NCBI GenBank assembly: GCA_951406725.2
Contig: OX597822.1
Span: 9,486,001-9,550,000, forward strand
Source of the DNA: Octopus vulgaris
Lineage: Eukaryota
Direction of reading: 5' to 3'
DNA: 64,000 bases
Within the stretch, counting starts at the first letter, position 1, and the number at the start of each line of letters is the position of its first letter. Shown piece after piece: positions 25,268 to 61,260 of the stretch. The notes beneath the pieces were generated by a model. The model did not search any database. It was not told the origin of the DNA and saw nothing but the letters and a program-made list of their open reading frames with translations. A program made the translations under genes and the position numbers.

Positions 25268-25307
25268 AGCTATTTCGGCATATAAACAATCGGTTTTATA
25301 AATAAAA

Positions 25308-26415
25308 ATGATGAAGAGTGCCCGTGTTTCACACGAACTTATAACACTGTTTAGCGGCGACACAGATGTAGTCGCTTGGCTGAAGAAAGTGAAGTTGGAG
25401 GCGAAGCTCCATGGTATAGGTGACCTGGCGAGCTTCATGCCGCTGTACTTGGATGGTCCAGCTTTGGCGTTGTATCTAGAGATGGAAGAGACAGACCAAC
25501 TTAACGCGGAGAAAGTGGAAGTCCGGTTGATGGAGGCCTTTGCGGAGGGAATGTTCGAGACATATGCTCGCCTGGGTAGAACGAGATGGACTGGGCAACA
25601 GGTGGACGTGTTTGCCAATGAACTTAGAAGACTGGCTAAACTGGGGGGTTACGAGGGAGAGTCGCTGGACCGGACGGTTAGGCTGACGTTCGTGACTGGC
25701 TTTCCCAACAACATGTTGGTCGAGCTACAGAAGCTTCCGAATGTGAATTCGATGCCGATGGCGGACATCATATCTCGGGCACGTGTACTAGTCTCGTGCA
25801 GCAGGATGACTTGGTAGCAGCGACTGCAACGTCGAAAAGTGGTCCAGCTAGGAGCAGCGGAGAGGGGCTAAAGAAAGAACATGTGCGACCATTCAAAGGA
25901 CAGTGTTTCTGGTGCCAAGGTCCACACATGGTGTGTGACTGCGTGTCACCCAGGCCTGAGGTGATTTGCTACTGGTGTCGAGAGCCGGGGCATATAGCCA
26001 GCGAGTGTCTGCGGGAGACTACTGCGCTGGTAGTTGTCTCTTTGGATCAGTAGAGGCGCGTTTATCATCACTACCTGTGGTTGACATTCTGGTGGAGGGG
26101 AAGATGTCGTGAGCCCTTGTGGACACGGGCTGTACAACGACCCTGATGACTACAGAAGTGGCAGAGACGGGGAGTGGAGGAAGCAGTGTTAGGGCTGTCA
26201 ACGGAAGAGAAGTACACTGCAAAGGGGTTACAGATGCGCAGATTGTAGTGCAGGGACTACAGCTGACGTTGCAAGCGATTGTGGTTGGTCACTTGGTGGA
26301 CGAGATTGACGTGGTGATGGGGATGGATGCAATCACCCGCTTGGGAAGTGTCACCGTTAACGAGGCTGGTGTAACGTTTGGGTTAGCGGGGAAACCGTGT
26401 AGGGCGAGACCATGA
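25308..26415 (+). pseudogene. Ty3/Gypsy gag (two CCHC-type knuckles) and aspartic protease, truncated before RT
   Basis: FSGDTDVVAWLKK gag motif; CFWCQGPHMVCDC and CYWCREPGHIASEC; ALVDTGCTTTL protease motif; frameshifted. Confidence 0.85.
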
Positions 26416-26975: not shown

Positions 26976-27606
26976 AAATATATATTGAATATTCTGCTGG
27001 ATAATAGGTCATGTTCCTCTAGTTTTCTGTTTGCACTGCCTCCATTCAAGTTAGTTCTAAAACTAGACCCATGAGTACAATTCTTATCTCTTGATTTGTG
27101 TTAAACACACCACTCATTCTGATTTGTACTAAATACACTGGAATCTCCCGCACACACATAGATATAGCCACGCATTTCCAAATATATAGACAAGTTTTTC
27201 AACAGTGCATTCACTATTATAGATTAAGTCATCAATAACTGACGAACGGTGTATAATACTGTCCCACTGAATATGGCCAATAATATTCTAAAACGCCACT
27301 GGGTAGAAAACGAAATCACTGCACTGATAAACGCTTGGTACACTCACCACAATGAAGCTAATGTTTACAGTAAAATAGCTGAAAAATTAGTGTCAGAATC
27401 TTTTTACAGATCTGTAAAACAGATCGAAAACAAAATAAAAATCACAAGATCATTTCATAATTTACACATGCACATGGCAACACTAGAAGCTATACTTGTC
27501 AATGGATGTAGTGCACCAACTGACCCAAGTCCAATAGGTCAGGGGTCACTTCAACTAGCCAGCAACAAACATATCCCTATCTGACCTGATTCCACCCAAC
27601 ACTGCT

Positions 27607-28956
27607 ATGGCAAGCCAGGACTCACTACCACAACAACAGCCAGCTACTGCATTGGAAGCACCTTGTTTGGCACCACTATCTGACCTGATTCCACCCAGCC
27701 CTACTATTGCAGGTCAAGATTCACTGCCACTACAGCAACAAAAACAGTCTGCTACTGATACTACAATAGGACCACTGACCACTGAGCCTGAGAGTATAGA
27801 AAAACGTCTACTGTGCCCATGTCAAAAATCCTGTCATTACCAGTCTCAAGGCAACTGTAGATTTGGCCCCAGCAGCACCAACAACACGGGATGCTGTGCT
27901 TTTTTCCATCCTACCTTATGCCATAGACTTGTTAAGGGCACCTGTCCATATGGTATAACAGAAAAAAACTGCCCTCATCTCCACCCCAAATACTGTCCTA
28001 AATACAGAGTCCATGGCCCTGATCCTAAATATGGATGCACAAAAGGCAAGGGAAGCACCTTCTTCCATCCTAAACTGTGCCAAACTTCTGTGTCACTAAG
28101 GATGTGCCTGAACCCAGAATGCAACCACCACCATCTGAAGGGCACAAAACGATCACAGAATAAATATAAACAGGAACAGAGGAAATCTAGGACAACAACA
28201 AAAACAAAATACAACCACGTTTCCCCTCCTACAATCAAACAACGTAGACAGAACCATGAAAAAACACCAAATAACGCCAACATGAAATATGTATCCTCTG
28301 ACCAAGTGACAAACCAAACAAGTAACTCTTTTTTACTGACATACCTAGAAAATATGAAGGCCGGCCTAAGCCAGGAGATCCAGCGAGCTATCACCAACGG
28401 TCAGCGAAAAAACGAATACCAGTTGAATTCTAATTCGAAAATAATAGAATTCATACACTTCAATGAATGTACAGTAATTTACCATCCTAAAGAGGTTCAA
28501 TCGTGTTCTAGAAAAGAATGGAACACATTCAACCATTTCCATATTATATGGAATTCAATCATCAGACCTGGCGAGAATCAGCGCCTGAAATACATACGAA
28601 GCTTATATAAGAAAGCTACCAATTTAGATCGATTCATACCTGAGTGCCAAAGAGTAAAATTTCCTAGTAGCATGGCAAACTATTTCTGCCAAGAACCGAG
28701 AAAAGTATTAATTGCAGGCACAGACGACATAAATAAAACATTTACTGAATGGTGTCAATGTGAATATATACCAAAACCTACACAAACTGAGATCGCAACT
28801 ACATCGAAGCAAGTCGTCAACGACGAGCCATCCTTCAAAAGTAGAATTGGAACGACTCTAACTTTATTCAATTACCTTACTTACATTTTCACTAGTAAGA
28901 GATTTCGTAACGAACAAGAAATGAAATCTCACTGGCTGAACAGAGGTAACAGGTAA
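27607..28956 (+). CDS. Chimeric ORF: LINE ORF1 CCCH fingers fused in frame to the parvoviral NS1 HUH domain
   Basis: 449-aa open frame crossing the insertion junction at 28398/28399; CCCH array at ~27830-28135; HFHII (HUH) at 28534; expression unknown. Confidence 0.65.
   Translation: MASQDSLPQQQPATALEAPCLAPLSDLIPPSPTIAGQDSLPLQQQKQSATDTTIGPLTTEPESIEKRLLCPCQKSCHYQSQGNCRFGPSSTNNTGCCAFFHPTLCHRLVKGTCPYGITEKNCPHLHPKYCPKYRVHGPDPKYGCTKGKGSTFFHPKLCQTSVSLRMCLNPECNHHHLKGTKRSQNKYKQEQRKSRTTTKTKYNHVSPPTIKQRRQNHEKTPNNANMKYVSSDQVTNQTSNSFLLTYLENMKAGLSQEIQRAITNGQRKNEYQLNSNSKIIEFIHFNECTVIYHPKEVQSCSRKEWNTFNHFHIIWNSIIRPGENQRLKYIRSLYKKATNLDRFIPECQRVKFPSSMANYFCQEPRKVLIAGTDDINKTFTEWCQCEYIPKPTQTEIATTSKQVVNDEPSFKSRIGTTLTLFNYLTYIFTSKRFRNEQEMKSHWLNRGNR
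28332..28398 (+). repeat. Left copy of the 67-bp direct repeat flanking the viral insert
   Basis: tttactgacatacctagaaaatatgaagg...atcaccaac; 62/67 identical to 30012-30078. Confidence 0.9.
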
Positions 28957-30011
28957 CAATGACAATTTCATGAGGGCGATTAGTCACCCTATGTATGATG
29001 CAGTTATGAAAAAAGTTCTGGAGTGCGTGAAATTAAAAATATTAATAACACCATTCATTAAAAAATTTGAAGATATGAACTGGAGTTACTTCGAGAACGA
29101 TACTCGTCACTATCTAACAAAAGAGGTTTCTCTGAAAATATTCCACTCCATCTTAATGACACAGGAAATTGACGAAAGTACCTTCGTTAACAACGTTTGG
29201 TATTTATTGAACAAGAAACTACCAAAATGTAATCTCCTTGTGTTAAGGGGTTTGCCAAATACTGGCAAATCAATGGTTGCTCGAAGTATTGCTGAGCTGT
29301 TCACTCACGTCAGCACGATCCAGGGGACAAGTAGTTTCCCATTCCAAAATTTGCTTAATGTAGAAATAGGTTTAATCGAAGAACCGAATTTCACTTTAGA
29401 AACCCTTCAGACTTTCAAGAAGCTTGCTGAAGGGACTGACACTGAAGTGTCTGTCAAATATAAACCAGACCAAATTGTTCACAGAACACCATTGATAATT
29501 ACATCAAACAAATTCGACAGCAACGCGCCTTTACACGAAAGACATGCTTTCATAACAAGATACCCAGAGTATCTATTCAATAAATCTTCTCCCTTCCTTC
29601 AATATGTAAAGAAAAAGATTAATCCTATTATATGGAATGTTTTATTTTATGAACATTGTTTTTCTTCTCTAATTACTGACGATGGTTCCTCATCAGATGA
29701 CAATTTATGTCACATTCTAGAAGAGTACGAAATTCTCACAAACAGAGACGCCGACAAAGAAAACAGAAGACCAAGTGGATTTCGGACTCTATCTAATAGT
29801 GGAAGCGGGTCAACCGTTAGAGTGTTCTCCGAAACAGACGAAGAAGAACAACTCCCAGAAAGAAAAAGAAAGTTCAGAAAACTGACGTACAAACCAAACT
29901 ACGAATCTGATAGTGAACTATCAGATACAGAACTGTAATTCTTTTTCATTTTTCATTTTCAATTATATAATTTGTAATCTGTAATATTAAATAAAAATGT
30001 TAAAAAAAAAA
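28399..30011 (+). other. NS1: Endogenous parvoviral element: NS1/Rep (HUH endonuclease + SF3 helicase)
   Basis: HUH NHFHII; Walker A GLPNTGKS (29249-29272); Walker B IGLIEE; B' FKKLAEG...VSVKYK; motif C PLIITSN; acidic C-terminus; AATAAA at 29990 and A10 at 30002-30011. Confidence 0.85.
28970..29938 (+). CDS. NS1: SF3 helicase half of parvoviral NS1 (322 aa, open)
   Basis: All SF3 motifs intact; joins the upstream HUH half if the aggtaac duplication (28944-28957) is collapsed. Confidence 0.8.
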   Translation: MRAISHPMYDAVMKKVLECVKLKILITPFIKKFEDMNWSYFENDTRHYLTKEVSLKIFHSILMTQEIDESTFVNNVWYLLNKKLPKCNLLVLRGLPNTGKSMVARSIAELFTHVSTIQGTSSFPFQNLLNVEIGLIEEPNFTLETLQTFKKLAEGTDTEVSVKYKPDQIVHRTPLIITSNKFDSNAPLHERHAFITRYPEYLFNKSSPFLQYVKKKINPIIWNVLFYEHCFSSLITDDGSSSDDNLCHILEEYEILTNRDADKENRRPSGFRTLSNSGSGSTVRVFSETDEEEQLPERKRKFRKLTYKPNYESDSELSDTEL

Positions 30012-30078
30012 TTTACTGACATACCTGGAAAATATGAAGGCCGACCTAAGCGAGGAGATCCAGCGAGCGATCATCAAC
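30012..30078 (+). repeat. Right copy of the 67-bp direct repeat; LINE ORF1 resumes
   Basis: Reads LLTYLENMKADLSEEIQRAIINHLCKSQ versus the left copy LLTYLENMKAGLSQEIQRAITN. Confidence 0.9.
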
Positions 30079-30335
30079 CATCTATGCAAATCACAAGGAC
30101 CACTCACCCATTACCAACTTCCCTTACCTCGACATTCCTGTTAAATGTACGTGGCATCAACCCATCAATCATTGCCCAAAAATGGAAGATTCCCATATAT
30201 AGAGAGAGAGAGAGTCAGCTTGCTGAAACGGCACATTGCTTCCCTTTCTTTATTCCTACAGAAACTCACCTAAACAGCACACATATGGATGCCGAAGTGA
30301 AAATAAAAGACTTCACCAGCATCCATGCAGATCAC

Positions 30336-30545
30336 ACAGACCAAATTAAAGGAGGGACAGACCAAATTAAAGGAGGGACAGACCAAATTAAAGGAGGGAC
30401 AGACCAAATTAAAGGAGGGACAGACCAAATTAAAGGAGGGACAGACCAAATTAAAGGAGGGACAGACCAAATTAAAGGAGGGACAGACCAAATTAAAGGA
30501 GGGACAGACCAAATTAAAGGAGGGACAGACCAAATTAAAGGAGGG
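30336..30545 (+). repeat. Perfect 21-bp minisatellite x10 in the LINE endonuclease
   Basis: (acagaccaaattaaaggaggg)10, encoding (TDQIKGG)10 in frame. Confidence 0.95.
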
Positions 30546-33015
30546 ACAGCCATCTTTCTCCATGACTCCTTTTCAGTCAATGCCAAGGACATATTTTCCA
30601 ATGGCTTTTGTGAATCTAAAGACATAATCATTGTCGGTCTTTACAGGCCTCCCCAAGCACCTCTGAAGTGCTTTGACGAGTGCCTCAACAAAATCAAGTC
30701 CTTCCTTCAAAAATACAACTCCAGGAACATACAAATGATGGGCGATTTTAACCTCCCTCATATAAACTGGCCCACAAATACTCTGAAGTTAGGCAAATGC
30801 TCTACATCAGATAAAGCAGCACCAGAATTACTCTTTAATCTAATGAATAAATTCTTCCTGACTCAGCTAGTGCTCGAACCAACAAGACAGAAGAAAACGA
30901 TCTTGGATCTAATATCAACCAACCATTCTAGCTCCATTCACAGTATTTCAGTTGAAAAAAACTCTCCTCTCAGACCACGACATGATACTCTGCAATTTTA
31001 ATTCCCAGCAAATCAAAATCAAACCACCCAATCTCATCCATGGCACTCATTTGACAACAAACTTTCACAAAGCGAACTGGGCAGCAATCAGAAAGGATCT
31101 GTCTTTCATTGACTGGTCTTTCACTCTCAGTTCCACCCAAATTGAGACCGCATGGCAGCACTTTGAGAACATTGTCACCTATACATGCTCTAAACAAGCT
31201 CCTACGAAATCCACTAACATAAACCGGCTCCCTAAAGAGAAAAAAAAAACACTCATCAGGCGCATCAAAAGACTCAATAAAAAAATCAACTAATTAAAAT
31301 ATTCCCACATACAACAACAATGAAAAGGCTGGAGTTGGAAAAACTTCATCTGCAGACCAACATGAAAACTTCCATTGAAAATCAAAGAGCTGCTGAGGAA
31401 CAGTGAGTAATCAAAATCATCAAACAGTAGTGTTCTATTATTATGCAAATAAACATAGAACCACTATCTCACCAACTGGGCCATTGATCGATGATAACAG
31501 CATTCTCCAACACGATGCTAAAGAAATGGCAGAAATAATACTGCTCTGTCTTTAGTGATCCCACTGATATTGATGTAAGAGAAGCGAACGAAGTTGATTC
31601 CCAACATAAAATCTCAGACATAACCTTCACTGCCTCTGGCATCGTAGCAACAATAAATAAGGTCAAATACTACTCTGCTGTAGGCCCTGATAGATTCCCC
31701 GCTAGTCTCCTGAAGGAATGTAGACATCTACTTGCAGTCCCTCTGATCAACATCTGGAGAAATTCTTTAGACACCGGTTATATACCGAAACAGCTCCTAT
31801 CCCAGTCTGTCATCCCAGTTTTCAAACAGAGAAACAGATCCCTCGCAGTCAACTATCGCCCAATCTCACTCACCTACCACATCATTAAAGTGTTTGAAAG
31901 CGTGGTAAGATCAAGGATAGCTGACTTCCTGGAGACCCACAAACTCCTAAATGCAGATCAGCATGGCTTTCGCTGTGGCAGGGACTGTCTAACACAGCTC
32001 TTACACCACATTGAAGATACACTTAAGGCCTTGGGAACAGGTTCGAACTCTGATGTCATATATCTTGACTTCAGTAAAGCATGCAACAGGGTTGACCATA
32101 ATATCCTACTCTCAAACTAGGCAAATGTTGGAATCCATGGAAAACTTCTACACTGGATTAAATATTTTTCTGGCGAATAGAACACATGTTGTGGTCGATG
32201 AAGTCCACTCAGGCCCAGCAAAAGTCACCAGCGGTGTCCCTCAGGGGACTGTCTTGGGCTCACTCCTCTTTATAATTTACATAAATGACCTTTTCAGTGT
32301 CGTAAATCACTGCAAAGTGAAAATATTTGCTGATGACACTAAGCTCCAGCAAATCATTAATGAAGAAGAAGACCAAATTCAACTCCAGTGAGGTCTATAT
32401 GAACGCGGGAAAATTTGAGCAGATGCATTTTGGAAGAAAGTCTATACTAAAACAGCCATACTCTCTTCCTTCAGGGCAACTGCTCACAAAATCTAATAAT
32501 ATTAGAGACCTGGGTGTAATTGCAGATAACAATCCCAGTTGGAGTGCCCATATCAACAATAAGGTCGATATAGCTCGTAAGATGAGCTCCTGGTTCTTAA
32601 GAACCTTCCGGTCCAGAGAACAAGGTGTCATCATTCCACTTTTCTCCTCCTTTGTACAGCCACACCTCGAATATTGCTGCCCCTTGTGGTCTCCCCATAC
32701 AAAACAAAACATCTCGAAAACTGAATCACCCCAGAGGGCACTCACTAAACGAATTGAAGGCATGGCTGCTCTCGATTATTGGGACCACCTTAAAGCCTTG
32801 AAATTCTACTTTCCCCAGCGTCGCCGTAAGCGGTACATCATTTGTACGATGTGGAGAATATATCGCCAACTTTGCCCAAATGACCTGAACATTAGCTTCA
32901 AGGTTCATCCGAGTTGGGACCACGGGCCATACGTCCCCTGCCCAATTTAGGATCAGAGCATACGTGTACACTGCGACACAATTTCTTTTCTTCAACAAAC
33001 CCTGCCCTGTTTAAC

Positions 33016-35610
33016 ATCTCATTGACTATGTCATTGTACGTCGTTCTGATCGACAAGATATAAGTCTTACATGCTCTTACAGTATAGGGAAATGTTGGTT
33101 AGATCACAAATTGATCTGCTCCACAATCAAGATGAAAACCAAACGCCTTGTTTGAAATCAACGTAGTTCTCCCATCAAGGAAATTGATGTGGACAAGTTG
33201 AAGGTTAAGGAGATCTTGCAGTTGTTTCAAACGGTTGCTGATGAAAAGCTGTCCTCCATTATATGTGGGAATGACATTGAGGCATCTTGGTCAGAGTTTA
33301 AAACTGCAGTGTATGACTCTGCCAAAGAGTCATTAGGATATGTTCGAAGGAAGAACCAAGATTGGTTTGATGAAAATGATCCAACCATCCTCCCTTTGCT
33401 CAGAAACATGCATCATGTGTGGATTACTGACAAAAATTCCTCAGTTGGCACAATCTCGGCTCTGGAAAATGAAACAAAACTGGTGGAAATTGAAAGCCCA
33501 GGCCTTACAAGATGCAGCGGATAAGTGCCATTTTAAATCTTTCTACCAAAATCTCAAAGGTGTCTTTGGTCCCATCTCAAAGAGGGCATCTCCAATATTT
33601 TTGTCAGATGGCACTCTCCTTACCGATAAGAAAGAGATTACTAAGTGCTGGGCTGAACATTTTTCAAATGTTTTAAACAGAGAATCGACAGTGGATCAGG
33701 AAGTGATTGATAATATTCCTCAGAAGCCAACCATCGAGAATCTTGCTGACAGTCCACCCATGTCGGAGGTTGAAAAGGCTATAAAGCAATTGCCAAATGG
33801 TAAGGCTCCATGTGATGATGGGATACCTGCAGAAATATACAAATGTGGAAGCCAACTGCTAATCAGGAAACTAAGTGCTCTGTTTTCTTCAATATGGGAA
33901 CTTGGTACCGTGCCACAACAGTTAAAAGATGATTCAATTATTCACCTATTTAAGCACAAAGGAAATAAATGTGAGTGTGATAACGATAGAGGAATTTCTC
34001 TCTCATCTGTTGCTGGTAAGATTCTAGCGCATGTAATCTTAAACAGACTCAATGATTCAATTTGTAAAACTGTGCTCCCAGAAACCCAATGTGGTTTCCG
34101 GTCTGGAAGAGGCACTGTGGATATGATCTTCAGCTTAGGGCAACTACAATAGAAAGCAAGGGAACAGAATAAGGACTTGTTTGTTACCTTTGTTGATCTC
34201 ACTAAGGCATTTGATACCGTCTCCAGGGATGCCCTGCGGACTGTTTTGAGGAAGCTTGGTGTTCTAGACAACATGTTAATGTGATTGTCTCCTTTCATTA
34301 TGGAATGATGGCATCAGTACGGTCTGACTGCGAACAAAGTGAACCATTTGAAGAGTCAAATGGAACCAAGCAATGATGTGTCCTTGCTCCGATCTTATTT
34401 GCTCTTTTCTTTTCAGTGATGCTTGAAACAGCCTTCAAAGACACCTCGGAAGGTGTAGGTGTTGAGTATCGATCAAGCAGAGGGTTATTTAACCAGCAGC
34501 GGTTCAAAGCCAAAACCCGGACTTTTGTGCAAACTGTTCTTGATCTCCTTTTTGCTGATGACTGTGCTCTTGTCACCCATAGTCTTGAGGACATGCAGAA
34601 CATCCTCAATAGCTTCTCTGATGCATGTAAGGCCTTTGGTCTTACAATTAGCATAACGAAAACTGAACTTATTCACCAGCTGAAACCAAACTCTTTGCCC
34701 TCTTCACAACAAGTGGTATATGTTGATGGTAAAGCTTTGAAAACAGCATCTTCTTTTACATACTCTATTGTGTCTGATGATGCAAAATTTGAAAAAGATA
34801 TCCAAAACAGAATCAGTAAAGCAAGTGAAGCATTTGGTAGGTTGCGACACAGACTCTGGAACAGCCACGATGTGTCTCTGAAAGTAAAAGTAGCAGTCTA
34901 CAAATCTGTTGTTCTATCTACTCTTCTGTATGGTGCCAAAACGTGGACCTTGTATCGCAAGCATATCAATCAGCTTGATTCCTTCCATATGAGATGTCTG
35001 CATTCTATTTGCAATGTTAAATGGCAAGATTGTGTTCGAAATAGTGAGTTGCTGGAGAGGTGTGAGATCACTGGTATTGAAACATTTTTGATTAAGATAC
35101 AAATGCGGTGGTCTGGTTATCTCGTAAGAATGGATGACTCAAGAGTTCCAAAGCAGCTTTTTTATGGGCAATTGACAAATTCTTCCGTCCAACAGGGCAT
35201 CTTCTTCGTTACAAGGACAAACTAAAAGACAATCTGAAGCGTTGTGACATTGCTCTGAGCTCCTGGGAGAGTGCAGCAGGGGATCGCAGCAAATGAAGGA
35301 ATGTGTTTTCTAAAGACTAGAGAATTTGAAAGTAACCGCCTTCATCATAGGGAGGCCCTTCGTGCAAATTTGAAAGCAACGCATCAGCAAAATCTACCAA
35401 ACATTGATTGTGTGTGTCACTGTAGGTTGAAAGCACGAAGCAAAGCTGAGTTAGCTGTCCACCCGAGAAGACATTTTGAACCAACGAATACATGCAAATG
35501 TACCATTTGCAAGAAAGTGTGCAAGACATCTGCTGGATTGAAGGTACACATGCAGTGTCACAAGGCTTAGGAATTGTTGAATGCTATTTACTGAACCCTC
35601 ATTCATCGTC
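33016..35610 (+). mobile_element. RTE-clade LINE, 5'-truncated and degenerate, with C-terminal C2H2 fingers
   Basis: LIDYVIV, RKNQDWFDE, GKAPCDDGIPAE, RGISLSS, PETQCGFRSGRGTVDMIF, FVDLTKAFDTV, LLFADD; tail CTICKKVCKTSAGLKVHMQCH. Confidence 0.85.
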
Positions 35611-37941: not shown

Positions 37942-40820
37942 TCTAAAATCAAAAGAAAAACAAACATGACGACTAACCTGCAGGCCTGCAACAGACGAAA
38001 TTGGTCTGATTATGAAATTGATGTCTTAATTAACACTTGGTTCTCACTTTCCCAAACAGAAAATTGAAATGCTTTATGTTTGAATGAGATTGCCGTAAAA
38101 ACATCGCAAATAGTCAACACACGATCCGTCAAACAAATTCGTAGCAAACTGAAGCATATCAAAGTCTCTTTCAAACTAACTAAAAGCCATTTTGAAAAAC
38201 TTCTTTATATTTTCACTGTTCAAGCCTAACAACAACAAGAACAACAGCCACTCCTAAACTCTAGCATACTAGATGATTTACTGAATGCCAGTATCTATTC
38301 ACAGCTCTCACAGCAACCACCACAACTATCATCATCATCATCACCACCGCTGCCACCATCATCTTCTATCACCAAAAATACTACTAATAAAAAACCAAAT
38401 AAGAAACCACAGCTCTCTTCCCCCACATCGCCACCTCAATACTACTGCAGTAACAAAAACCTAAAAAAACATATGAAGCAGAATGCGCCCCCCCCCCCAC
38501 GGCACAAACAAGAAACCCCAAAATATGCCATTATTCAGAGGCTCTGCACAAGTAGTGACTGCATCTTCACACATCTACCTGGCACTAGATGCACTACCGG
38601 CCAAGGCCAAAGAATGCCTCAACAGCATTAAGTGCTTTATTCAACAGTGCCATTCTAGCAACCTACTCATGATGGGAGACTTTAATCTACCCTGTGTTGA
38701 CTGGACTACAAACTGTTTGAAACCAAGCACTCCCGCCTCAACCGCTGACAAAGAAGCAGCAGAGTCACTTTTCAACTTTATGAATGAGTTTTTCTTGTCC
38801 CAACTTGTCCTTGCACCAACAAGATATCAGAAGAACATTTTGGACTGAGTGTTTAGTAACCACACTAACACTATACATAACATTACAGTAGAAAAAACCC
38901 TTCTTTCAGAACATGACATAGTTCTCTGTAACATGAAATTCCACCAGCCGAAAGCTAATCCTAGTGACCTCTCTCCAGCCCACCCATTTGATAACATGGA
39001 TCTCCATAATGCCAACTGGGATGCAATCAGGAACAAGCTATCACATGTTGACTGGTCCTTTACACATACACACATCTCCACCAAGCATAAAACATCTTGG
39101 CAGATCTTTGTAGACACCGTCACAAACATATGTGCAAAACACTCCCCACAAAGACCTGTGAACAAAAAGTGCAGAATCCCCCAAAACAGAAAAACTATTA
39201 TCAGAAAAATAAAAAGAACAAACAAAAAAATTAACAAGCTAAAATACTGCCAACAGCAACACACACATTCCACGGCTATCGCACTGCTTGAATCCAAAAA
39301 ATATAACCTCCAACAATGCATGAAAACCCTCAACAATAACCAAAGATCAGTTGAGAAGTGGGCTATTGAAAAAAATCAAACTCAACCCCAAAGTGTTCTT
39401 TTCATTTGCGAGGAAACAGGGTCACTGTCTCCACTGTTGGCCCTCTAATTGATGAAAATGGCACTCTCCAAGATAATGTCAAATCCAGAAACAATACTGC
39501 TCTGTTTTCAGCAATCCTGATATGGCCGATCTGGGCTGTATCAGTGATGTCAACCCCCAACACACTATATCGGACATAACGTTTGGTGCCCCTGATGTCC
39601 TAGTGGCAATAAACGAAATAAAACAAAATTCAGCAGTAGGCCCCGATAGGTTCCCTGCTTGTGTCCTGAAGGTGTGTCGACACCAACTTGCATCTCCCCT
39701 TGCTAATCTGTGGAGAAACTCACTGGATGCTGGCTATATTCCTAAAAACTTTCTGTCCCAGTTTTCAAAAAGGGAAACAAGTCCCTTGCAGTGAACTACC
39801 GTCCGATCTCACTCACCTCTCATATCATCAAGGTATTTGAGAGGGTGGTGAGATCTCGAATAACTCAATTTCTGGAAAGCAACAGATGGCTGATCTCTAA
39901 CCAACATGGGTTCCGTAATGGAAGGGACTGCCTAACGCAGCTCCTGCATCACTTTGATGACATTTTGCGAGCTTTGGGAGAGGGCTCCAACACCGATGTC
40001 ATCTACCTTGATTTCAGCAAGGCCTTCGACAGGGTTGATCACAAGATCCTATTGAAAAAACTATCCAACATTGGTGTCGCTGGAAAGTTACTGAAATGGA
40101 TCAAGTGTTTCCTGACAGACAGATCTCAACATGTAGTTGAAGGAGTAAAATCAAGCCCAGCCAAAGTCAGTAGTGGCGTTCTGCAAGGCACTGTGCTGGG
40201 CTCACTTCTTTTCATCATCTACATTAATGACATTAATGACATCATCAAGCACAGCAACATAAAAATCTCTGCAGATGATTCCAAGCTCCAGAAGGTCATA
40301 AATGAGGCGAGTGACCGGACATGCCTTCAGTCAGATCTACAGGCTGTTATCCAATGGGCAGAAAAGAACAATATGCTGCTGAACGAGGATAAATTTGAGT
40401 TAATCCACTTTGGAAAAGAGGATGCCCTGAAACTCCCATACTCCCTTCCTTCAGGTGAAAATCTCGAGGCATCCAACAACATCAGAGACTTGGGAGTAAT
40501 TGTGGACAACAACATAAGCTGGGCCACTCATATAAACACCAAAGTTGACATGGCCCGCAGAACGTGTTCCTGGATTCTCAGAACTTTCCAGTCGAGAGAT
40601 ATCCACACCATTATCCTTCTCTTCTCCACTTTTGCCCAACCCCACCTTGAATACTGTTGTCCACTGTGGTCTCCCCACACAAAACAAAGTATCATAAAAG
40701 TTGAAGCACCTCAAAGGGCAATCACCAAAAAGATAGATGGCATGACAGGCCTCGACTATTGGGGTTGACTAGAAAAGCTAAAACTTTATTCTCTCCAACG
40801 TCGCCGTGAGCGCTACATCA
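37942..40820 (+). mobile_element. CR1/L2-group LINE (Myb/SANT-like ORF1 start, internal deletion, APE end, RT)
   Basis: GDFNLP, NILD, SEHD; 325-aa RT ORF 39791-40768 with NYRPISL, QHGFR, YLDFSKAFD, QGTVLG, SADD; ends YSLQRRRERY. Confidence 0.85.
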
Positions 40821-40966
40821 ATCCCCTCGTCTCTCTCTCTCTCTACCCCCCCCTCTGGCTGATCTGCCACCAGCTTTTCTCCTTTCTCCTCTCCCTCTCA
40901 GGTCAACCATCTTATCTTTCCTTCTCTCTGTTCCTATATTTCACTCTCACTGTATCTCGGGCAAAA

Positions 40967-41457
40967 ATGTCAAGGAACTGGTCTGTGAGGGAGTTGCAAT
41001 TGTTCGTCCGCGCCTGGAAGATTGCCAAGGGTGACTCGCCAAACAATATTATTGCAGCGGTGCTAAAGAGCAATGATTTTTCGAGGACCACCGCCCAGAT
41101 AGAGCGAAAGAAACGAGAATTTCTCCATTCATACGCTCTAATCAGGCAACACATGGACACTGTGGACATCATCCTAGGAGGTGACTGCACCAGGGAAGGC
41201 CAAAAGGATGAAGAAAACATCCAGGACCCAACAAAAAACAAAACCGAGAAACCTAGAAAACAGGGAAACAATGGCACGTGTCCAGCTCCCAACACAACTG
41301 AAGACCAGATGGCCGCAAAAAAAGGAAAGCACCCTAAAATTCATGGGAAACGAGGTAAAAGACAAGAAAACTAAAACTAAAACTAACACTGTTCAGAAAA
41401 GACAGAAGAACCCCAGCAAGAACTATAAGGGCAAAGGCAGAAACATCTGCAAATTCT
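40967..41457 (+). mobile_element. LINE ORF1 5' fragment (Myb/SANT-like, ends at the first CCCH)
   Basis: RNWSVRELQLFVRAW...RTTAQIERKKRE...NICKF; homologous to 50061 and 42929(-). Confidence 0.7.
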
Positions 41458-45060: not shown

Positions 45061-47637
45061 CCCTTTCGTGTTCAAACCGGCCATATCCGGCCAGAATTAA
45101 TTCCCCTTTATTTGTTCAAACTGGCCAAATCCGGCCGTAAATGACCTCTCTATGAAATCGCTAAAAAAAATAAACAAATCACGTTATTAAATTCTCGTAG
45201 CTTTGAGATAATGCGAGATGAAGCCTTTATTCAAGTATAAATACTGTGAAATTGTTTCGACCACATGGTTATTTCCACGTTTGAAGAGAACTGCATACGT
45301 TTGTTGTGAAAAAAATGGTGTCAGCAAGTAGCGATTCCGACTTTGAAGGCTTTACCATTGATGATGTTGAAGATATCAACGAAAACAAAAGTATTTTGAC
45401 TTGGGATGAGTCTGATATTGATATCAGCGATTATTCGTCGGACGAAGAAGATTTCGATAACGAAAGTGAAGAAAATGAAAGTCATGAAAACGATAGTGTA
45501 AACAAGGCAACATGGTCGAAAATTACGACACCAGTCACAATTTCTGATTTTACAGAAAACACTGGTCCACACCCTCAACCACTGGATTATCTATTTTTAT
45601 TTTTACCTGAAAGTTTTTTTGAAAATGTTGCGGAGCAAACGAACAAATATGTGCAACATTTAATTTCTGTTCGTGGAAGAAGCAATCCGCTATGGCAGCC
45701 AACTAATACTGCGGAAATGAGAGCATTTTTTACAATCAACATTATGTTTGGAGTTAAACAGCTTCCTCGACTGTGGAACTATTGGAGTCCCGATGTAAGG
45801 TATGGCGACCCATATATTTCGAACATCATGTCGAAGACGAGGTATTCGAAAATATCTCAGTATTTACATTTGACTGATTCTTCCAATGCCCCCAACAAAA
45901 ACGACCCAAACTATGATCCCCTGTACAAAGTACGTCCTGTAATTGATTTACTCGTACATAATTATAAAACTATTTATTTACCTGGAAAAAATCTCAGTGT
46001 AGATGAAGCCATGATAGGATTTAAGGGCAGAGTACATGCCTGCCAAACCTACTAAATGGGGGATCAAGGTATGGGAAGTTTGTGAATCGGAGACGGGATA
46101 TTGTGTAAACTTCGATGTTTACACAGGTAAGAAATATAATGGGAAAAGACCTCATGGATTGGGACATGATGTTGTATGGTCCCTTACACAACCTTTTCAC
46201 CATCAGCACCGACACCTCTATTTCGATCGTGTTTTTTCTTCAGTGGCTTTGGCTGAAAATCTTGCACGTGTAAGCACTTACATGTGCAGCACTGTTATGG
46301 GAAATCGTAAAGGTTTACCCCATGAAATAAAAGCAAAATTTAAAAAAAGAGGGGACATTTTGCAAATGCAAAAACAAAATATATTAGTTACTGCATTTAA
46401 AGACAAAAGGCAGATTTTATTTCTGTCTTCTAACGAACAAACTGGTGTTGGGGCTGAGGGGAAACCCCTCGTGAATATTTGCTACAACAAATATATGGGT
46501 GGGGTAGACAAATCCGACCAATATCGGGCATATTACCCAGTTGGTCGACCTGGGAAGAAATGGTGGAGGTACATTTTGTGGTTTTTAGTTAATTTAACTA
46601 TAGTAAATGCACACATTGTTTACGTAAAAAGCCACAAAGTACCTCCGCCACCAAAAGACTACGACCACTTGAAATTTCGGGTTGACATTTGCATCTCAGT
46701 TACGTGAGGGCTTTTCTTCTAGAAAGCACAGAGCTGGGAGAAAAGCAAAATTAACTGAGGTGGAGGTCAACAGAGAAAATATTGACTTTCATCAAATGGA
46801 AAAAATAAATGGAAGGAAAAAAGTGTGCAGACTGTGTTCGTAGCAAAAACAAAAAAACTGCGAAAGGGTACCAGATCGAGACTTCATACATGTGTTCGTT
46901 TTGCCAAGTGCCCTTGTGTAAAGGGTGCTTTGGACAATTTCACGACAGAAATATGCCATAAATGTATAATTTTGCATATTCCTTTTAATTTTATAATATA
47001 ATATGTGAAAGTGAGAACTACATATTAATTTTCAGTATGTTACACACCTGTATTCACCTTTGTCTCACCTGTTAATGAGATTTTTTTATTAGATGCATTC
47101 TGTTACGTGAATGAATTCATTAAATTGTATAAGAGTGCATAGCCAATGGTATATTGACTAGTAAAAGAGTTTTGTACTTTCTTTTCAATGATGACGTTTG
47201 AATGAAATATAGAAAAAGAGTAAAATCTTGTACCGATTACACCTGTATTTTAATTAATTCAAATTAATGTACCTCATCTTGAAAAATGTAAAATGGTTGG
47301 CCGTTGACATCTGGGATAATTTTAGCAGCAAATCAAACAGGTAAGATGTATTAAGAATATGAATTTTAGTGTTTATTCATAATGTTATTGTTTTTACACC
47401 TGTTAATTAAATTTACCTGCCCATAAAAGTCAAATTTAGTGAGAAAGATCAGCTAAAATTACGTAATTATAAACCACTGGCATATAAGCACCCATTTACA
47501 AAGTTTCAAAGCTGTATGTAGAAAATTAACAAAGTTACAAGTAAATATTGTGGACACCCCACTTGAACCTGAATAAATCCAAATTAATCTGAACAGATAA
47601 GCATTACATTTGACAAGTTAATCTGAACACTAAAGGG
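45061..47637 (+). mobile_element. Full-length piggyBac transposon, 2577 bp, frameshifted transposase (~45316-46960)
   Basis: TTAA TSDs (45057-45060, 47638-47641); TIR cccttt(c/a)gtgttca; SVDEAM, YFDR, GGVDKSDQ; C-terminal Cys-rich domain. Confidence 0.92.
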
Positions 47638-54209: not shown

Positions 54210-55624
54210 AGATTTATTTTAGAGAACAATTACTTTATTTTTGACAATAATTTCTACAGACAAAGATCGGGAACAGCGATGGGCACGCGTACTGCACCAT
54301 CTTTTGCCAACCTAGTGATGGGATACCTCGAGAAAATACTCTACCAGATAACACTCGAGAAATTTGGAAACACCTTCACCACCTATATCCATAACAACTG
54401 GAAAAGATACCTCGATGACTGTTTCATCATCTGGGACAAAGGTATAGAGAAACTTGAGGAATTTAAAATACTATCAAATGGAATAAATGATAATATACAA
54501 TTCACGATGGATCACAACGAAACAGAATTACCATTTTTAGACATCCTCATTAAGAAAACCGGCAAAAAAATAGAGACAGATATCTACTATAAACCGACAG
54601 ACTCCAAACAATACCTACCCTTTGATTCATGCCACCCATGACACACTAGAATAAATGTCCCTTTTTGTTTAGCTAGAAGGATCTGCACCATAATATCAGA
54701 CACAAACACCCGACACACACGTCTCCAGGAACTTAGAACCACACTCACAAATAGAAACTATCCACAGCCCCTAATAGACAGTGCAATCCAAAGGGCACTC
54801 AAATTAAGTATAGAAGACCTGAGACAAACAAAACCAAAAAAGAAAGAACAATTAAAAACCCTTCCCTACATCTCTACACACAACCCACTCAACAATGAGG
54901 CCTTCAGCGCCATACTACAAAGCACAGCCCTACTAAAGGGAGACCCAAAGATGAACCGGATCCTCGAAACACACACCATGATTAAAAGTAAACGGCAACC
55001 AAAATCCTTGAAAAGGATTTTAACCCAAGCTAAACTGCACTCAACATCAACCACAAAACCAGCAGTTAGAAAATGTGGAAGGCCCAACTGCGGAATCTGT
55101 GTCATCTTGATAGAAGGTTCAGAATTTATACTAGAACAAGGCCATCAGTTCACCATTAGAGCAAACTTCACCTGCGCATCAGAAAACTTAATTTACGTCA
55201 TAACATGCGCAGGCTGCAATAGGCAGTATATAGGCCATACAAAAAATAGCTTACGTAACAGGATAGCGGTGCATAAATCACAAATTAGAAACCCTGAATA
55301 CCGGAAAATACCGGTCAGCGGACACATAGATAGATGTGCTGGAAATGTAAATCCGAAATTTACAACTTACCCGCTTTATAAATTCAGTGACAATGCAACC
55401 TTCACGCAACGCCAAAATAAAGAACTGTATTTCATCAAAAAATTTAGACCAAGTTTAAACACCCTGGGCCAGGAATATTAAAACAAAAGATTGGTCCTCC
55501 GAAAAGGAGAAGCGAAATTCCACCACGGCCGCTACCTAAAACAGTCACTCACACTGACGGAAATATGTCTTAGGGAAAAGGGAAAAAAATTTATAAAAAG
55601 ATCTCTTCGAACAGATCTAATCCT

Positions 55625-57332: not shown

Positions 57333-58206
57333 TGCGCCCCGCCCCCCCACCCCCACCACCAATACCGTTGAACACTGTTCTCACCCCCACCACCAATACC
57401 GTTGAACACTGTTCTCACCCCCCCACCACCAATACCAGTATACCCCGTTCTCTCCATCTACACCGGATACACCTTACTCATCTACACTGGGTACGCCCTA
57501 CTCCCTCCTCCTCCCCCACTACCCCTTCTCCTCATATGCTTAAGACAAGCTGCTAGCGCCATAGCTCATCAACTGCCCACCGATCTTACGCTTCCTCCTG
57601 ACACTGCCTCAATCCGACCATCCCCTTTTAGTACCCTCCCGCCTCGTCAATCCGACCATCCCCTTTTAGTACCCTTCTCCTCATATGCTTAAGACAAGCT
57701 GCTAGCGCCATAGCTCATCAACTGCCCACCGATCTTACGCTTCCTCCTGACACTGCCTCAATCCGACCATCCCCTTTTAGTACCCTCCCGCCTCGTCAAT
57801 CCGACCATCCCCTTTTAGTACCCTCCCGCCTCGTAATATCCTAAGTTTTTATTTCTTAGGAACCTACACCAACCCTTCCTGCCATCGTTCCTCCTTACCC
57901 CAACCTTCCCCACTGGTTGCTCCCCTATATTACCCGCCTCAACTGGACCCCCCTCCCCAACTCAACTCTAGAATATCTGTATTTCTTTCCTCTACCTAAT
58001 TACGTTACTCAGTGACGATAACAAATGTCCACTGCTAACACCAGCTCCTGCCCACGGCGTGGTCAGGTTGGAAGAGAGATCAAAAGAAAAATACCACGAA
58101 AACTATCACCACCACTACAACCCTCCTCTTCTCAGGCGCCGAATCCCCCTGTCCCCCCCACATCTCCTTCCCAGTTTTCAGAGTTGGCACTATCAATGTT
58201 GGTACA

Positions 58207-61200
58207 TTGACAGGCAAGTCTAGTGAGATTGTAGAGATGCTAGAGAGAAGACAGGTTGATGTATGCTGCATACAAGAGGTAAGATGGAGAGATGCTTCGG
58301 CTAGGGTCCTCACGGGCAAGGCATTTAGATACAAACTCTACTGGCAAGGTAACGCGGAAGGTGTAGGGGGTGTAGGCATTCTCCTTGCGGAGGAATGGGT
58401 GGATAAGGTCATAGAGGTTGTCAGGGTTTGTGATAGAGTGCTTAAGCTCAGGTTGGTCCTACAGAGTGGCACAGCTATGATTATCTCAGCCTATGCCCCA
58501 CAAGCGGGACTACCAAATGATCAGAAGGACAACTTTTATGATACCCTTCTGCAGGCTACTTCAAAGACTAGTAACAAGGACCTCATCTTTGTAGGTGGAG
58601 ATTTTAACGGGCATGTTGGGCGGGAATCGGGTATCTTCACTGGGGTACATGGTGGATATGGTATTGGCACCAGAAATGATGAGGGAACTAGACTACTGGA
58701 ATTCTGTGATGCATGTAACCTTTCAATCTGCAACACTAACTTCAAGAAGCCAGTCTGCCACCTTATAACTTATCAGTCAGGAGACTCCGCTAGCCAAATA
58801 GACTTCATCCTCACCAGACAACGGGATGCAGGGTTGCTCTTGAATACAAAGACCCTCCCGGGTGAAGAATGTATCCCTCAGCATAGACTAATCATCAGTG
58901 ACTTTAAGCTTGAGGCCAGAAGGACTCCAAGAAACAAACCAATCCAGAAAAGAAGGATTTGGAGGCTAAAGAACCCTTCGCATGGTCAGAAATTTAGGGA
59001 CATACTCATCAAGAAATTTGATGAGAGGGAAGAGGAGCTTCAGACGTCAGACATAGAAGGTAGCTGGGAATTCCTACGGGACAGCTTGTTGAGTGCCACA
59101 GACCAAGTTTGTGGATGGTGCAAAGTCCCTTCCAGACCTAGAATTACGTGGTGGTGGAATAGTGCAGTAGATAAAGCCATCTGTGAAAAGAGACGGGCCT
59201 GGAAAGCCTGGAAGGATGGGGGCAGCAGGGAACTGTACCAGATAGCCAAAAGGGAGGCTGGGCGGCAGGTATACATTGCCAAAGATGTAGCAGAAAAGAA
59301 GAAGTTTGCCAATGTCCAGCGTCGCGAGGATCAAAGAGCTGAAGTATTTCGGATTGCCAGACAGTGTGTCAGAGAAAATAGCGATGTTATAGGAGAGAAA
59401 TGTGTCCGCATGGATGATGGGGCACTTGCTTTTACTACTAGTGAAAAGAAAGAGGCTTGGAGAAGCCATTATGAAAGACTGCTAAATGAGGAGAATGAAT
59501 GGGAGGAGGAGAGCCTGCCAAATGTTGACCCAGTAGAGGGACCAGCTACCCGAATAGACAGCTCCCTTGTAGATAAGGCAATTAAGGATATGAAACCAGG
59601 CAAAGCCCCTGGCCTATCAGGAATCACTGCTGAGATGCTTAAAACAGCTGGCTATGTGGGCCATGCCATAGTCACCCGCATTGTAAACCAGGTAGTTCAC
59701 AATGGAGCCATACCCAATGACTGGTGCAGCAGTACCATAGTCAACTGCTACAAGGGTAAGGGTGATGCTCTAGATAGAAATAACTACAGAGGTATCAAAC
59801 TGTTGGACCAGGTGATGAAGGTCTCAGAGAAGGTCATAACCAATCTCATTAGGGAGAGAATTTGTTTAGATGAAATGCAGTTCGGTTTTGTACCAGGTAG
59901 AAGCACCACTGATGCTATATTCCTGGTCCGACAACTGCAGGAGAAGTACCTAGCTAAAGATAAACCCCTCTACATAGCTTTTGTAGACTTGGAGAAAGCC
60001 TTTGACAGGGTTCCCCGTTCCCTTATCTGGTGGTCGATGCGGAAACTGGAGATTGAAGAATGGCTAATAAGGGCTGTACAGGCTCTATACAGAGAGGCTG
60101 TTAGCAAGGTTAGGATTGGCAACGAATATAGTGAAGAATTCCGAGTAGAAGTAGGTGTGCACCAGGGCTCAGCCCTCAGTCCCCTTTTGTTCATCATAGT
60201 CCTTCAAGCAATAACAGAGGAATTCAAAACGGGATGCCCCTGGGAGCTCCTCTATGCCGATGACCTAGCTCTCATAGCAGAATCACTACCGGAACTAGAA
60301 GAGAAATTTCGGGTATGGAAGCAAGGGTTGGAATCAAAGGGCCTTAGAATAAATGTAGCAAAGACCAAAGTATTAGTAAGCAGCAAGAGGTACTCAACAC
60401 ACATCCCCTCGGGTAGGTGGCCCTGCTCAACCTGTAGGAAAGGTACAGGTAGAAACTCCATAAGATGCACCCAATGTAAGTTATGGACACATAAGAGGTG
60501 CAGCAACATTAAAGGGAAATTAACAGATAAGATAGCTTTCATGTGCGGCAGATGCACAGGGACAATAGACACAACAGACACTCAGAAAACAGATTCCATC
60601 ACACTCCAGGGAGAGAAACTAGAAGTAGTTGATAGTTTCCGCTACCTGGGAGACCAAGTTAGTAGCGGAGGTGGATGCACAGAGAGTATCACCACTAGAA
60701 TACGAATAGCCTGGGCAAAGTTCAGAAAGCTCCTACCCCTACTGGCAACAAAAGGCCTCTCCCTCAGAGCAAAAGGTAGATTATATGATGCATGTGTGCG
60801 AACTGCCATGCTTCACGGTAATGAAACATGGGCTGTGACTGCAGAAGACATGCGTAGACTTGAAAGAAATGAAGCTAGCATGATCCGCTGGATGTGTAGT
60901 GTCAGTGTGCACGCAAAACAGAGTGTAAGTATCCTGAGAGAAATGCTGGATATAAGAAGCATCAGATGTGGTGTGCAAGAGCGACGCTTGCGATGGTATG
61001 GTCATGTGCTGCGGATGGATGAAGAGAGATGTGTGAAGAAGTGCCACTCCCAAACAGTTGAAGGTATCAGGGGGAGAGGTAGACCCAGGAAGACATGGGA
61101 TGAGGTGGTCAAGCATGACCTCAGAGCATTGGGCCTCACTGAGGCAATGGCGAAGGACCGAGATCTCTGGAGATATGCTGTGACTACAAAGACCCGGGCT

Positions 61201-61260
61201 GCTTTCTGCAGCAATTCCACATACCCCCTACCCATTCTAAGTACCCCCTACCCATTCTAA
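58207..61260 (+). CDS. RTE ORF: APE endonuclease + RT with inserted PHD-like finger (frame open from 58039)
   Basis: GTINVGT, CIQEVRW, GDFNGHVG, QIDFIL, NYRGIKLL, QFGFVPGRSTTDAIF, FVDLEKAFD, HQGSALSP, YADD; CSTC...CTQC...HKRC...CGRC; no stops. Confidence 0.9.
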   Translation: MTGKSSEIVEMLERRQVDVCCIQEVRWRDASARVLTGKAFRYKLYWQGNAEGVGGVGILLAEEWVDKVIEVVRVCDRVLKLRLVLQSGTAMIISAYAPQAGLPNDQKDNFYDTLLQATSKTSNKDLIFVGGDFNGHVGRESGIFTGVHGGYGIGTRNDEGTRLLEFCDACNLSICNTNFKKPVCHLITYQSGDSASQIDFILTRQRDAGLLLNTKTLPGEECIPQHRLIISDFKLEARRTPRNKPIQKRRIWRLKNPSHGQKFRDILIKKFDEREEELQTSDIEGSWEFLRDSLLSATDQVCGWCKVPSRPRITWWWNSAVDKAICEKRRAWKAWKDGGSRELYQIAKREAGRQVYIAKDVAEKKKFANVQRREDQRAEVFRIARQCVRENSDVIGEKCVRMDDGALAFTTSEKKEAWRSHYERLLNEENEWEEESLPNVDPVEGPATRIDSSLVDKAIKDMKPGKAPGLSGITAEMLKTAGYVGHAIVTRIVNQVVHNGAIPNDWCSSTIVNCYKGKGDALDRNNYRGIKLLDQVMKVSEKVITNLIRERICLDEMQFGFVPGRSTTDAIFLVRQLQEKYLAKDKPLYIAFVDLEKAFDRVPRSLIWWSMRKLEIEEWLIRAVQALYREAVSKVRIGNEYSEEFRVEVGVHQGSALSPLLFIIVLQAITEEFKTGCPWELLYADDLALIAESLPELEEKFRVWKQGLESKGLRINVAKTKVLVSSKRYSTHIPSGRWPCSTCRKGTGRNSIRCTQCKLWTHKRCSNIKGKLTDKIAFMCGRCTGTIDTTDTQKTDSITLQGEKLEVVDSFRYLGDQVSSGGGCTESITTRIRIAWAKFRKLLPLLATKGLSLRAKGRLYDACVRTAMLHGNETWAVTAEDMRRLERNEASMIRWMCSVSVHAKQSVSILREMLDIRSIRCGVQERRLRWYGHVLRMDEERCVKKCHSQTVEGIRGRGRPRKTWDEVVKHDLRALGLTEAMAKDRDLWRYAVTTKTRAAFCSNSTYPLPILSTPYPF

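Follow-up and report, generated by a model that had tools for sequence, protein, structure and literature searches.

Endogenous parvoviral elements are common in invertebrates and often consist of NS1 only, as passages of PMC5013282 and PMC12287923 describe. Among the IHHNV elements of crustaceans, 193 of 252 are NS1-derived (a section of PMC12287923), and parvovirus-related sequences are known in molluscs and annelids (passages of PMC5013282). Co-opted cases exist as well, such as enRep-Myo9 of the guinea pig and DeRep of the degu (parts of 10.1101/572735 and PMC10384997; also part of PMC9707805). The segmented densovirus of Acheta domesticus carries its NS gene on a segment of its own, which is closed by hairpins of >200 nt (passages of PMC10267136). 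In the literature, supplements aside, we found neither a parvoviral element of an octopus nor a chimera of LINE and NS1 reported, and the main text of a paper on the repeats of Octopus vulgaris (PMC13282606) does not contain "viral", "parvo" or "densov"; the supplements of PMC5013282 and PMC13282606 could list the insert sequence. Here we analyse a window of 64,000 nt of Octopus vulgaris (contig OX597822.1, positions 9,486,001 to 9,550,000), a transposon-rich stretch within a 2.8-Gb genome, in which a piece of a parvovirus-like NS1 gene interrupts a LINE copy. An earlier note had read it as an in-frame fusion of LINE zinc fingers with a viral Rep protein, possibly retained by the host. We show that the locus is a mosaic of old LINE, a young LINE patch, an NS1 piece ending in an A-run, and old LINE again, and it is with high probability a young neutral fossil.

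The NS1 insert, its host LINE copy and its relatives

The host element, which we take to be CR1-like, is an APE-type LINE: its ORF2 encodes an endonuclease and a reverse transcriptase, ORF1 lies upstream, and its copies are dispersed. About 60 copies were retrieved out of several hundred to thousands of candidates. The insert of 1,613 nt (28399-30011) lies near the end of ORF1 between 67-nt repeats and comprises most of the NS1 gene, without a capsid gene and without a terminal hairpin. It is absent from all 29 other LINE copies examined, 27 of which contain the 67-mer once while two partly miss it. The coordinates of all features are collected in Table 1.

Table 1. Features of the locus in window coordinates, with the 3' ends of three sibling copies
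Feature	Position	Strand	Remark
Host LINE copy	27052 to ~33017	+	ORF1, insert, ORF2
Old 5' part of host LINE	27052..28054	+	5' region, ORF1 start 27273, frameshift, fingers 1-3
449-codon frame	27607..28953	+	ORF1 remnant from private ATG into viral nuclease part
Four CCCH-like units of ORF1	27832..28134	+	third with Ser for third Cys (28054-28056)
Young LINE patch including left repeat	28055..28398	+	left edge approximate, ~28055-28100
Left 67-nt repeat	28332..28398	+	young-subfamily type, 1 difference
NS1 N-terminal piece	28399..28953	+	5'-truncated by ~37 residues
SF3 helicase piece of NS1, acidic/basic tail and stop	28940..29938	+	Walker A 29249-29272
Tandem 7-nt repeat at frame break	28944..28957	+	
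Viral 3' untranslated stretch	29939..30011	+	ATTAAA 29986, AATAAA 29990, A10 run 30002-30011
Right 67-nt repeat	30012..30078	+	old-copy type, 4 differences from young subfamily
Old 3' part of host LINE	30079..33017	+	ORF1 end, broken ORF2 (endonuclease, reverse transcriptase)
Sibling NS1 3' ends	L002:2400-2500, L003:2393-2490, L004:1075-1170 (minus)		AATAAA, A-run, shared motif

The N-terminal piece of NS1 is 70% identical to a full-length homologue (P0002, 547 aa), starting near residue 38 of the latter, and the alignment of homologues shows a conserved HFH at 28534-28542 and a conserved Tyr at 28681. Its putative HUH domain has no Pfam match. The structure model of this piece has a pLDDT of 59 (33 for the single-sequence model), the top four viral proteins among its best fold matches are parvoviral NS1 at weak scores (E 0.016-0.098), and among solved structures a wide search gave no match that reached Z 5; the models point at most weakly to a nuclease fold. 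The helicase piece is open over 28940-29938, matches Pfam Parvo_NS1 (E 1.4e-15) and, by sequence, the structures of AAV Rep and NS1, and its Walker A, Walker B and motif C could be identified. The atlas features of P0002 score 0.98 to NS1 clusters. The 3' untranslated stretch is AT-rich and is matched by the equivalent stretch of a sibling NS1 copy (L002); its AATAAA stands only 6 nt ahead of the A10 run. A public annotation holds a 287-aa protein (P0001) from the helicase piece (29075-29938), which is probably a gene call on a fossil. The closest named relatives of the viral protein are found in Octopus bimaculoides (84%) and Lamellibrachia (47%), among 27 related proteins in all; the profile search reached named parvoviral NS1 only at lower scores, and none of 21 pattern matches in IMG/VR was confirmed. 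The insert is an endogenous parvoviral element, integrated in a host chromosome and inherited: it lies on a 119-Mb contig, and near-identical sequence is present in all four other samples compared (three studies, three organism labels). The earlier note had proposed a search for more LINE-NS1 copies, and the genome has a single match to the 24-mer across the junction, even when two mismatches are tolerated.

The helicase piece has 22 matches in the genome on 10 contigs, namely the contig of the insert and C1, C5, C12, C14, C15, C19, C25, C27 and C29; C14 and C19 bear another NS1 lineage, distantly related, whose identity is 28-29%. The host LINE family is absent from all 11 short and all 8 long NS1 loci. 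In three sibling copies (L002, L003 and L004) the sequence continues beyond the A-run to a hairpin-like motif common to all three, which folds weakly (z -2.68, -1.78 and -1.55, respectively), with no capsid gene between; a search for a repeat flanking these copies found none. Since the siblings continue beyond it, the A-run is probably templated, as a part of the viral genome, and need not be an mRNA tail. The full-length homologue P0002 lies on a contig of 2,093 nt; taken with the sibling ends, it gives a hint of a segment that carries NS alone or of an element without a capsid gene. Other relatives (P0010-P0025) measure 500-540 aa and lie on long contigs from another source, and the cluster of P0015 has 18 members at 90% identity; they form a multi-copy NS1 family that may be mobile. 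In run X4, two contigs match the insert briefly at 28512-28553 and then pass into a different, related NS1 N-terminal sequence, which was not seen in the genome searches and may belong either to another element or to a live virus.

The neighbourhood holds several further elements. Within the endonuclease of the host LINE, a 21-nt unit is repeated in tandem at 30336-30549, in about ten identical copies; the array adds 189 nt in frame and is private to the host copy. A second broken LINE occupies 33100-35570, and a relative of the host LINE (70-74%) lies at 38200-41400. An open LINE ORF2 of 1,073 aa at 58039-61257 (+) encodes an endonuclease and a reverse transcriptase followed by a PHD-finger match below the cut-off (Pfam E 0.0006); this element is young, and its domain order is unusual. 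There are also a piggyBac-like transposase (DDE_Tnp_1_7, 45285-46704), a GIY-YIG piece (54642-55478) and, judged by eye, an LTR gag/protease-like remnant (25302-26415).

The open frame, selection and the age of the insert

The anatomy drawn in the earlier note is sound in outline (frame, 7-nt repeat, flanking repeats, broken ORF2) and wrong in several particulars. An open frame does extend over 27559-28956, counts 449 codons from the ATG at 27607, and crosses the LINE/virus junction at 28398/28399, which places 264 ORF1 codons in frame with the viral NS1 piece. The note had described four CCCH fingers running in frame into NS1; the frame is real, but the third finger is short of one Cys, which is kept in 18 of 20 matched LINE copies. 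No Pfam family matched the finger region. The 449-codon frame also differs from the ORF1 of the LINE itself. Native ORF1 starts at 27273 with a Myb/SANT domain (Pfam) and measures 387 aa where it is intact, in one of 26 LINE copies; here a loss of 7 nt and a gain of 8 nt at about 27556-27580 separate this start from the fingers. At 27607, 16 of 17 matched copies have TTG and one has CTG, so that the ATG is private to the host copy. The 7-bp duplication is thus not the only lesion, as had been held: ORF1 was already frameshifted upstream, and the helicase lacks one codon beside motif C. Nor is there an ORF of 774 aa in the actual sequence, where the two pieces occupy different frames. The same 199 ORF1 codons are open in 7 of 19 other LINE copies, and the open ORF1 stretch is therefore ordinary. 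That the junction is in frame is best explained as a one-in-three accident, with no working fusion protein made.

A co-opted fusion gene would have an intact frame across individuals and purifying selection after insertion, and neither is seen. In the ORF1 half (27607-28398), 15 private changes are non-synonymous and 2 synonymous (P 0.002 under a dN/dS of 0.3). For the alleles, half or more of the sampled words were found in 12 runs from six studies under three organism labels, and four runs were compared as contigs. The stretch 28944-28957, whose duplication the note had proposed to test for polymorphism or absence elsewhere, is covered without length change in all four other samples, so that the 7-nt repeat is kept in each. 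All four carry in addition a 2-nt loss at 28856, after which the frame stops at 28893; the studied sequence agrees with the homologues at this point. One run shows two more deletions, each seen in a single contig: 15 nt are gone at 29436, within the conserved block that follows Walker B, and 2 nt at 29789. Sample substitutions in the insert are non-synonymous in seven cases and synonymous in one (neutral share 0.80; P 0.001 under a dN/dS of 0.1), a tally of the eight listed, beside which one more in X8 lies outside the list. These counts are small, and neither they nor the ORF1 half give any sign of purifying selection. The contigs of X4 and X5 reach 30 letters into the LINE beyond the junction, one below the cut-off of 31, and were not counted as bridging; with 0-4 other letters per record and a single copy in the genome, we infer that both samples carry the same locus. 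The hole in cover at about 29440-30005 in X5, X7 and X8 proves nothing. LINE depth is 4x insert depth in X4 and 30-293x in the other three runs; these are contig depths and were rejected as evidence of expression. The dN/dS of 0.11 between the studied sequence and the sibling L002 mostly reflects the viruses before insertion. With a single copy, a frame broken in four of four samples and no purifying selection found, signs that the earlier note itself had set for a neutral fossil, the retention of a chimeric zinc-finger/Rep protein that it envisaged becomes very improbable, whereas its other suggestion, that the insert is younger than the decay of the LINE, is borne out by age.

The insert and the adjoining 344 nt of LINE on its 5' side are decayed by about 1-1.5%, against 3-6% in the remainder of the copy. 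One age of about 1% fits the patch, the invariant NS1 codons and the lesion count together (maximum likelihood 0.9-1.0%, interval 0.4-2.0%, p 0.36-0.40). The LINE ORF2 has many lesions, as the note had said: over about 2,750 nt it has gathered 10 private frameshifts and 4 private stops, with a pN of 0.058; at this rate 7.8 lesions are expected in the insert and one is observed (P 0.003). The better preservation of the viral part is therefore due to its being younger than its surroundings. Among the NS1 columns invariant in homologues, 1 of 105 is changed; other homologue sets give 0 of 96 and 2 of 84 for the second piece and 3 of 35 for the first. The figure of 0 of 96 sits less well with a young neutral fossil (P 0.03 at 1.5% decay, 0.11 at 1%), and the helicase core is in slight excess of the preservation expected.

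The mosaic junction and possible routes to it

The two 67-nt repeats differ at five sites, the count given in the earlier note; none of their private changes is shared, one being on the left and four on the right. We compared them with a young LINE subfamily represented by 14 copies, which deviate by 1.63% from the commonest base among themselves. The patch at 28055-28398 differs from this subfamily at 5 of 343 sites and the flanking LINE at 43 of 520: 23 of 223 in 27802-28054 (10.3%), 4 of 67 in the right repeat (6.0%) and 16 of 230 in 30079-30335 (7.0%). The nearest LINE copies stand at 1.7-2.9% from the patch and 5.4-6.6% from the flanks. No comparable patch was found in 40 other LINE copies, in which private change amounts to 1.44% versus 1.58% in the two stretches. 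A permutation test that allows for the choice of edge, which was picked after the data were seen, gives p 0.002, and a model with a fresh left copy makes the repeat pattern 2-410 times likelier than plain duplication over eight settings. A left repeat of young type and a right repeat of old type are not a true target-site duplication, and the 5/67 difference is no clock; a duplication from one target is not what the repeats show, although later conversion could hide a true one. The 5 differences in 134 repeat positions were tried as the insertion age and gave a poor one-age fit (p 0.03-0.04), which follows from the two templates; this estimate was dropped after the mosaic comparison.

How could such a junction form? 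The young unit, LINE patch plus viral piece, has its 3' end next to a T-run of the older copy. We see about an even chance that the reverse transcriptase of the LINE, at work on viral RNA, changed templates to fresh LINE RNA, and that the product annealed into the older copy. The insertion would have taken place while the young subfamily was active. Reverse transcription would start where the old copy was nicked next to its T-run (28332/30012), proceed from the A-run through about 1.6 kb of viral RNA, switch to LINE RNA 67 nt past the nick and continue into ORF1. The new DNA would then pair with the homologous part of the old copy and replace it back to about 28055-28100, leaving a fresh left repeat and an old right one. 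Reverse transcription would account for the 5' truncation, a mark of retrocopies, and for an insert that stops at an A-run behind AATAAA, and the age of the patch equals that of the young subfamily's own copies. Against this route, a coincidence is needed to bring the switch to within 67 nt of the nick, the A-run, with AATAAA so close ahead, was probably templated, and parvoviral elements are held to come mostly from viral DNA (passages of PMC3205384).

The main rival, in itself unlikely, is repair of a double-strand break, in which a young LINE copy served as the template for extending the left end and a fragment of viral DNA was joined in between. The break would lie at the T-run, extension would reach 67 nt past it, and about 280 nt upstream would be converted. 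A duplication beginning at the break is then natural, the origin from DNA agrees with that usual view of parvoviral elements, the sibling copies keep an apparent genome end, and the A-run of L002 followed by T7 offers a possible microhomology to the T6 of the LINE target. However, break repair requires two donors at one break, the insert stops at the A-run without a hairpin, and a patch as old as the young subfamily's copies is what an RNA donor would leave.

Third comes an ordinary retrocopy with a true 67-nt target-site duplication, whose left side was later converted from a young LINE copy, a sequence of events that we consider improbable. Truncation, A-run and direct repeats are the textbook pattern of retrocopies (part of PMC3205384), but a second event of the same age as the insert, ending within 4 nt of the junction, is required, none of the three sibling copies tested has a flanking repeat, and the duplications of human L1 peak at 14-16 bp in length (a section of PMC2912911). 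Template switching onto LINE RNA remains the reading that we prefer; all three routes are neutral, and under each of them the shared frame is a matter of chance.

Compatible with any of these routes, though quite improbable, is a role of the locus as RNA, that is, as a template for small RNAs against related viruses. NS1 pieces lie at about ten sites of the genome, and a role of this kind is indifferent to frameshifts. One cluster (C14:64316000-64345999, L119-L121) has at least five NS1 pieces of varied divergence among transposons, along with ORFs for ankyrin repeats and a Rep of CRESS type (Pfam Viral_Rep, E 8.9e-23). Clusters of this type resemble EVE-rich small-RNA loci. Against this role, the insert has the same orientation as the LINE, and LINE-driven RNA would be sense to the virus. 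Finally, it is very improbable that selection temporarily maintained a host protein, antiviral or other, made from the ORF1-NS1 fusion or from just the helicase piece: the open frame across the junction, the 0 of 96 helicase columns, the annotated 287-aa protein and the precedents enRep-Myo9 and DeRep (parts of 10.1101/572735 and PMC10384997) are met by a severed native start, a private ATG, a broken third finger, non-synonymous changes in 15 of 17 private ORF1 sites and 7 of 8 sample alleles, a frame broken in all samples with further losses segregating, and a preservation that youth alone explains, and present-day selection on the fusion is largely refuted.

Meaning and comparison with known systems

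One supposed case of viral gene co-option is removed by the analysis, which also shows how the error arises: a young insert in an old element seems preserved, and flanking repeats that come from two templates give a false age. The value of the locus is a datable junction that records the entry of DNA-virus sequence into the germline together with LINE sequence. It is also evidence for an undescribed parvovirus lineage of molluscs and annelids with repeated entry into the octopus genome, its NS1 maybe on a separate segment. We would give little chance to the whole of a wider picture, in which a LINE reverse transcriptase joined RNA of a DNA virus to LINE RNA and wrote the product into an older LINE copy, the virus was an undescribed parvovirus of octopus with NS1 on a short, hairpin-ended segment of its own, about ten entries into the germline took place, and antiviral small RNAs resulted.

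Chimeras of nascent cDNA with a resident L1, and template-switch chimeras of the U6-L1 type, were reportedly described by Gilbert et al. in 2005 and by Buzdin et al. As in those cases, young and old elements are joined here at homology with a duplication, and foreign RNA would be joined to a LINE; unlike them, the foreign part is of DNA-virus origin and follows the LINE part on its 3' side, in a non-L1 element of an invertebrate, by a route that we infer. With the retrocopies of bornavirus N (EBLN, as passages of PMC3205384 present them) the insert shares a piece of viral gene, an A-run end and direct repeats, whereas its virus is a DNA virus, its A-run is probably templated, and its repeats come from two templates. 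Like enRep-Myo9 and DeRep, it is a parvoviral Rep in frame with, or kept as, an ORF of the host genome; those two are conserved, transcribed and translated, according to parts of 10.1101/572735 and PMC10384997, while the octopus insert is frameshifted in every sample and in neutral drift. The sibling copies hint at a hairpin-closed NS segment as in the Acheta densovirus (passages of PMC10267136), but their motif is about 60 nt long and weak (z -1.55 to -2.68), and no capsid segment was identified. The closest likeness is to the parvoviral elements of invertebrates as sections of PMC5013282 and PMC12287923 portray them, which are NS1-only, helicase-centred, truncated and decaying, several per genome, among transposons; the differences here are an unclassified NS1 lineage and a junction with a young LINE patch in an old copy. 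The locus is a decaying endogenous parvoviral element, of a known kind, with an unusual junction.
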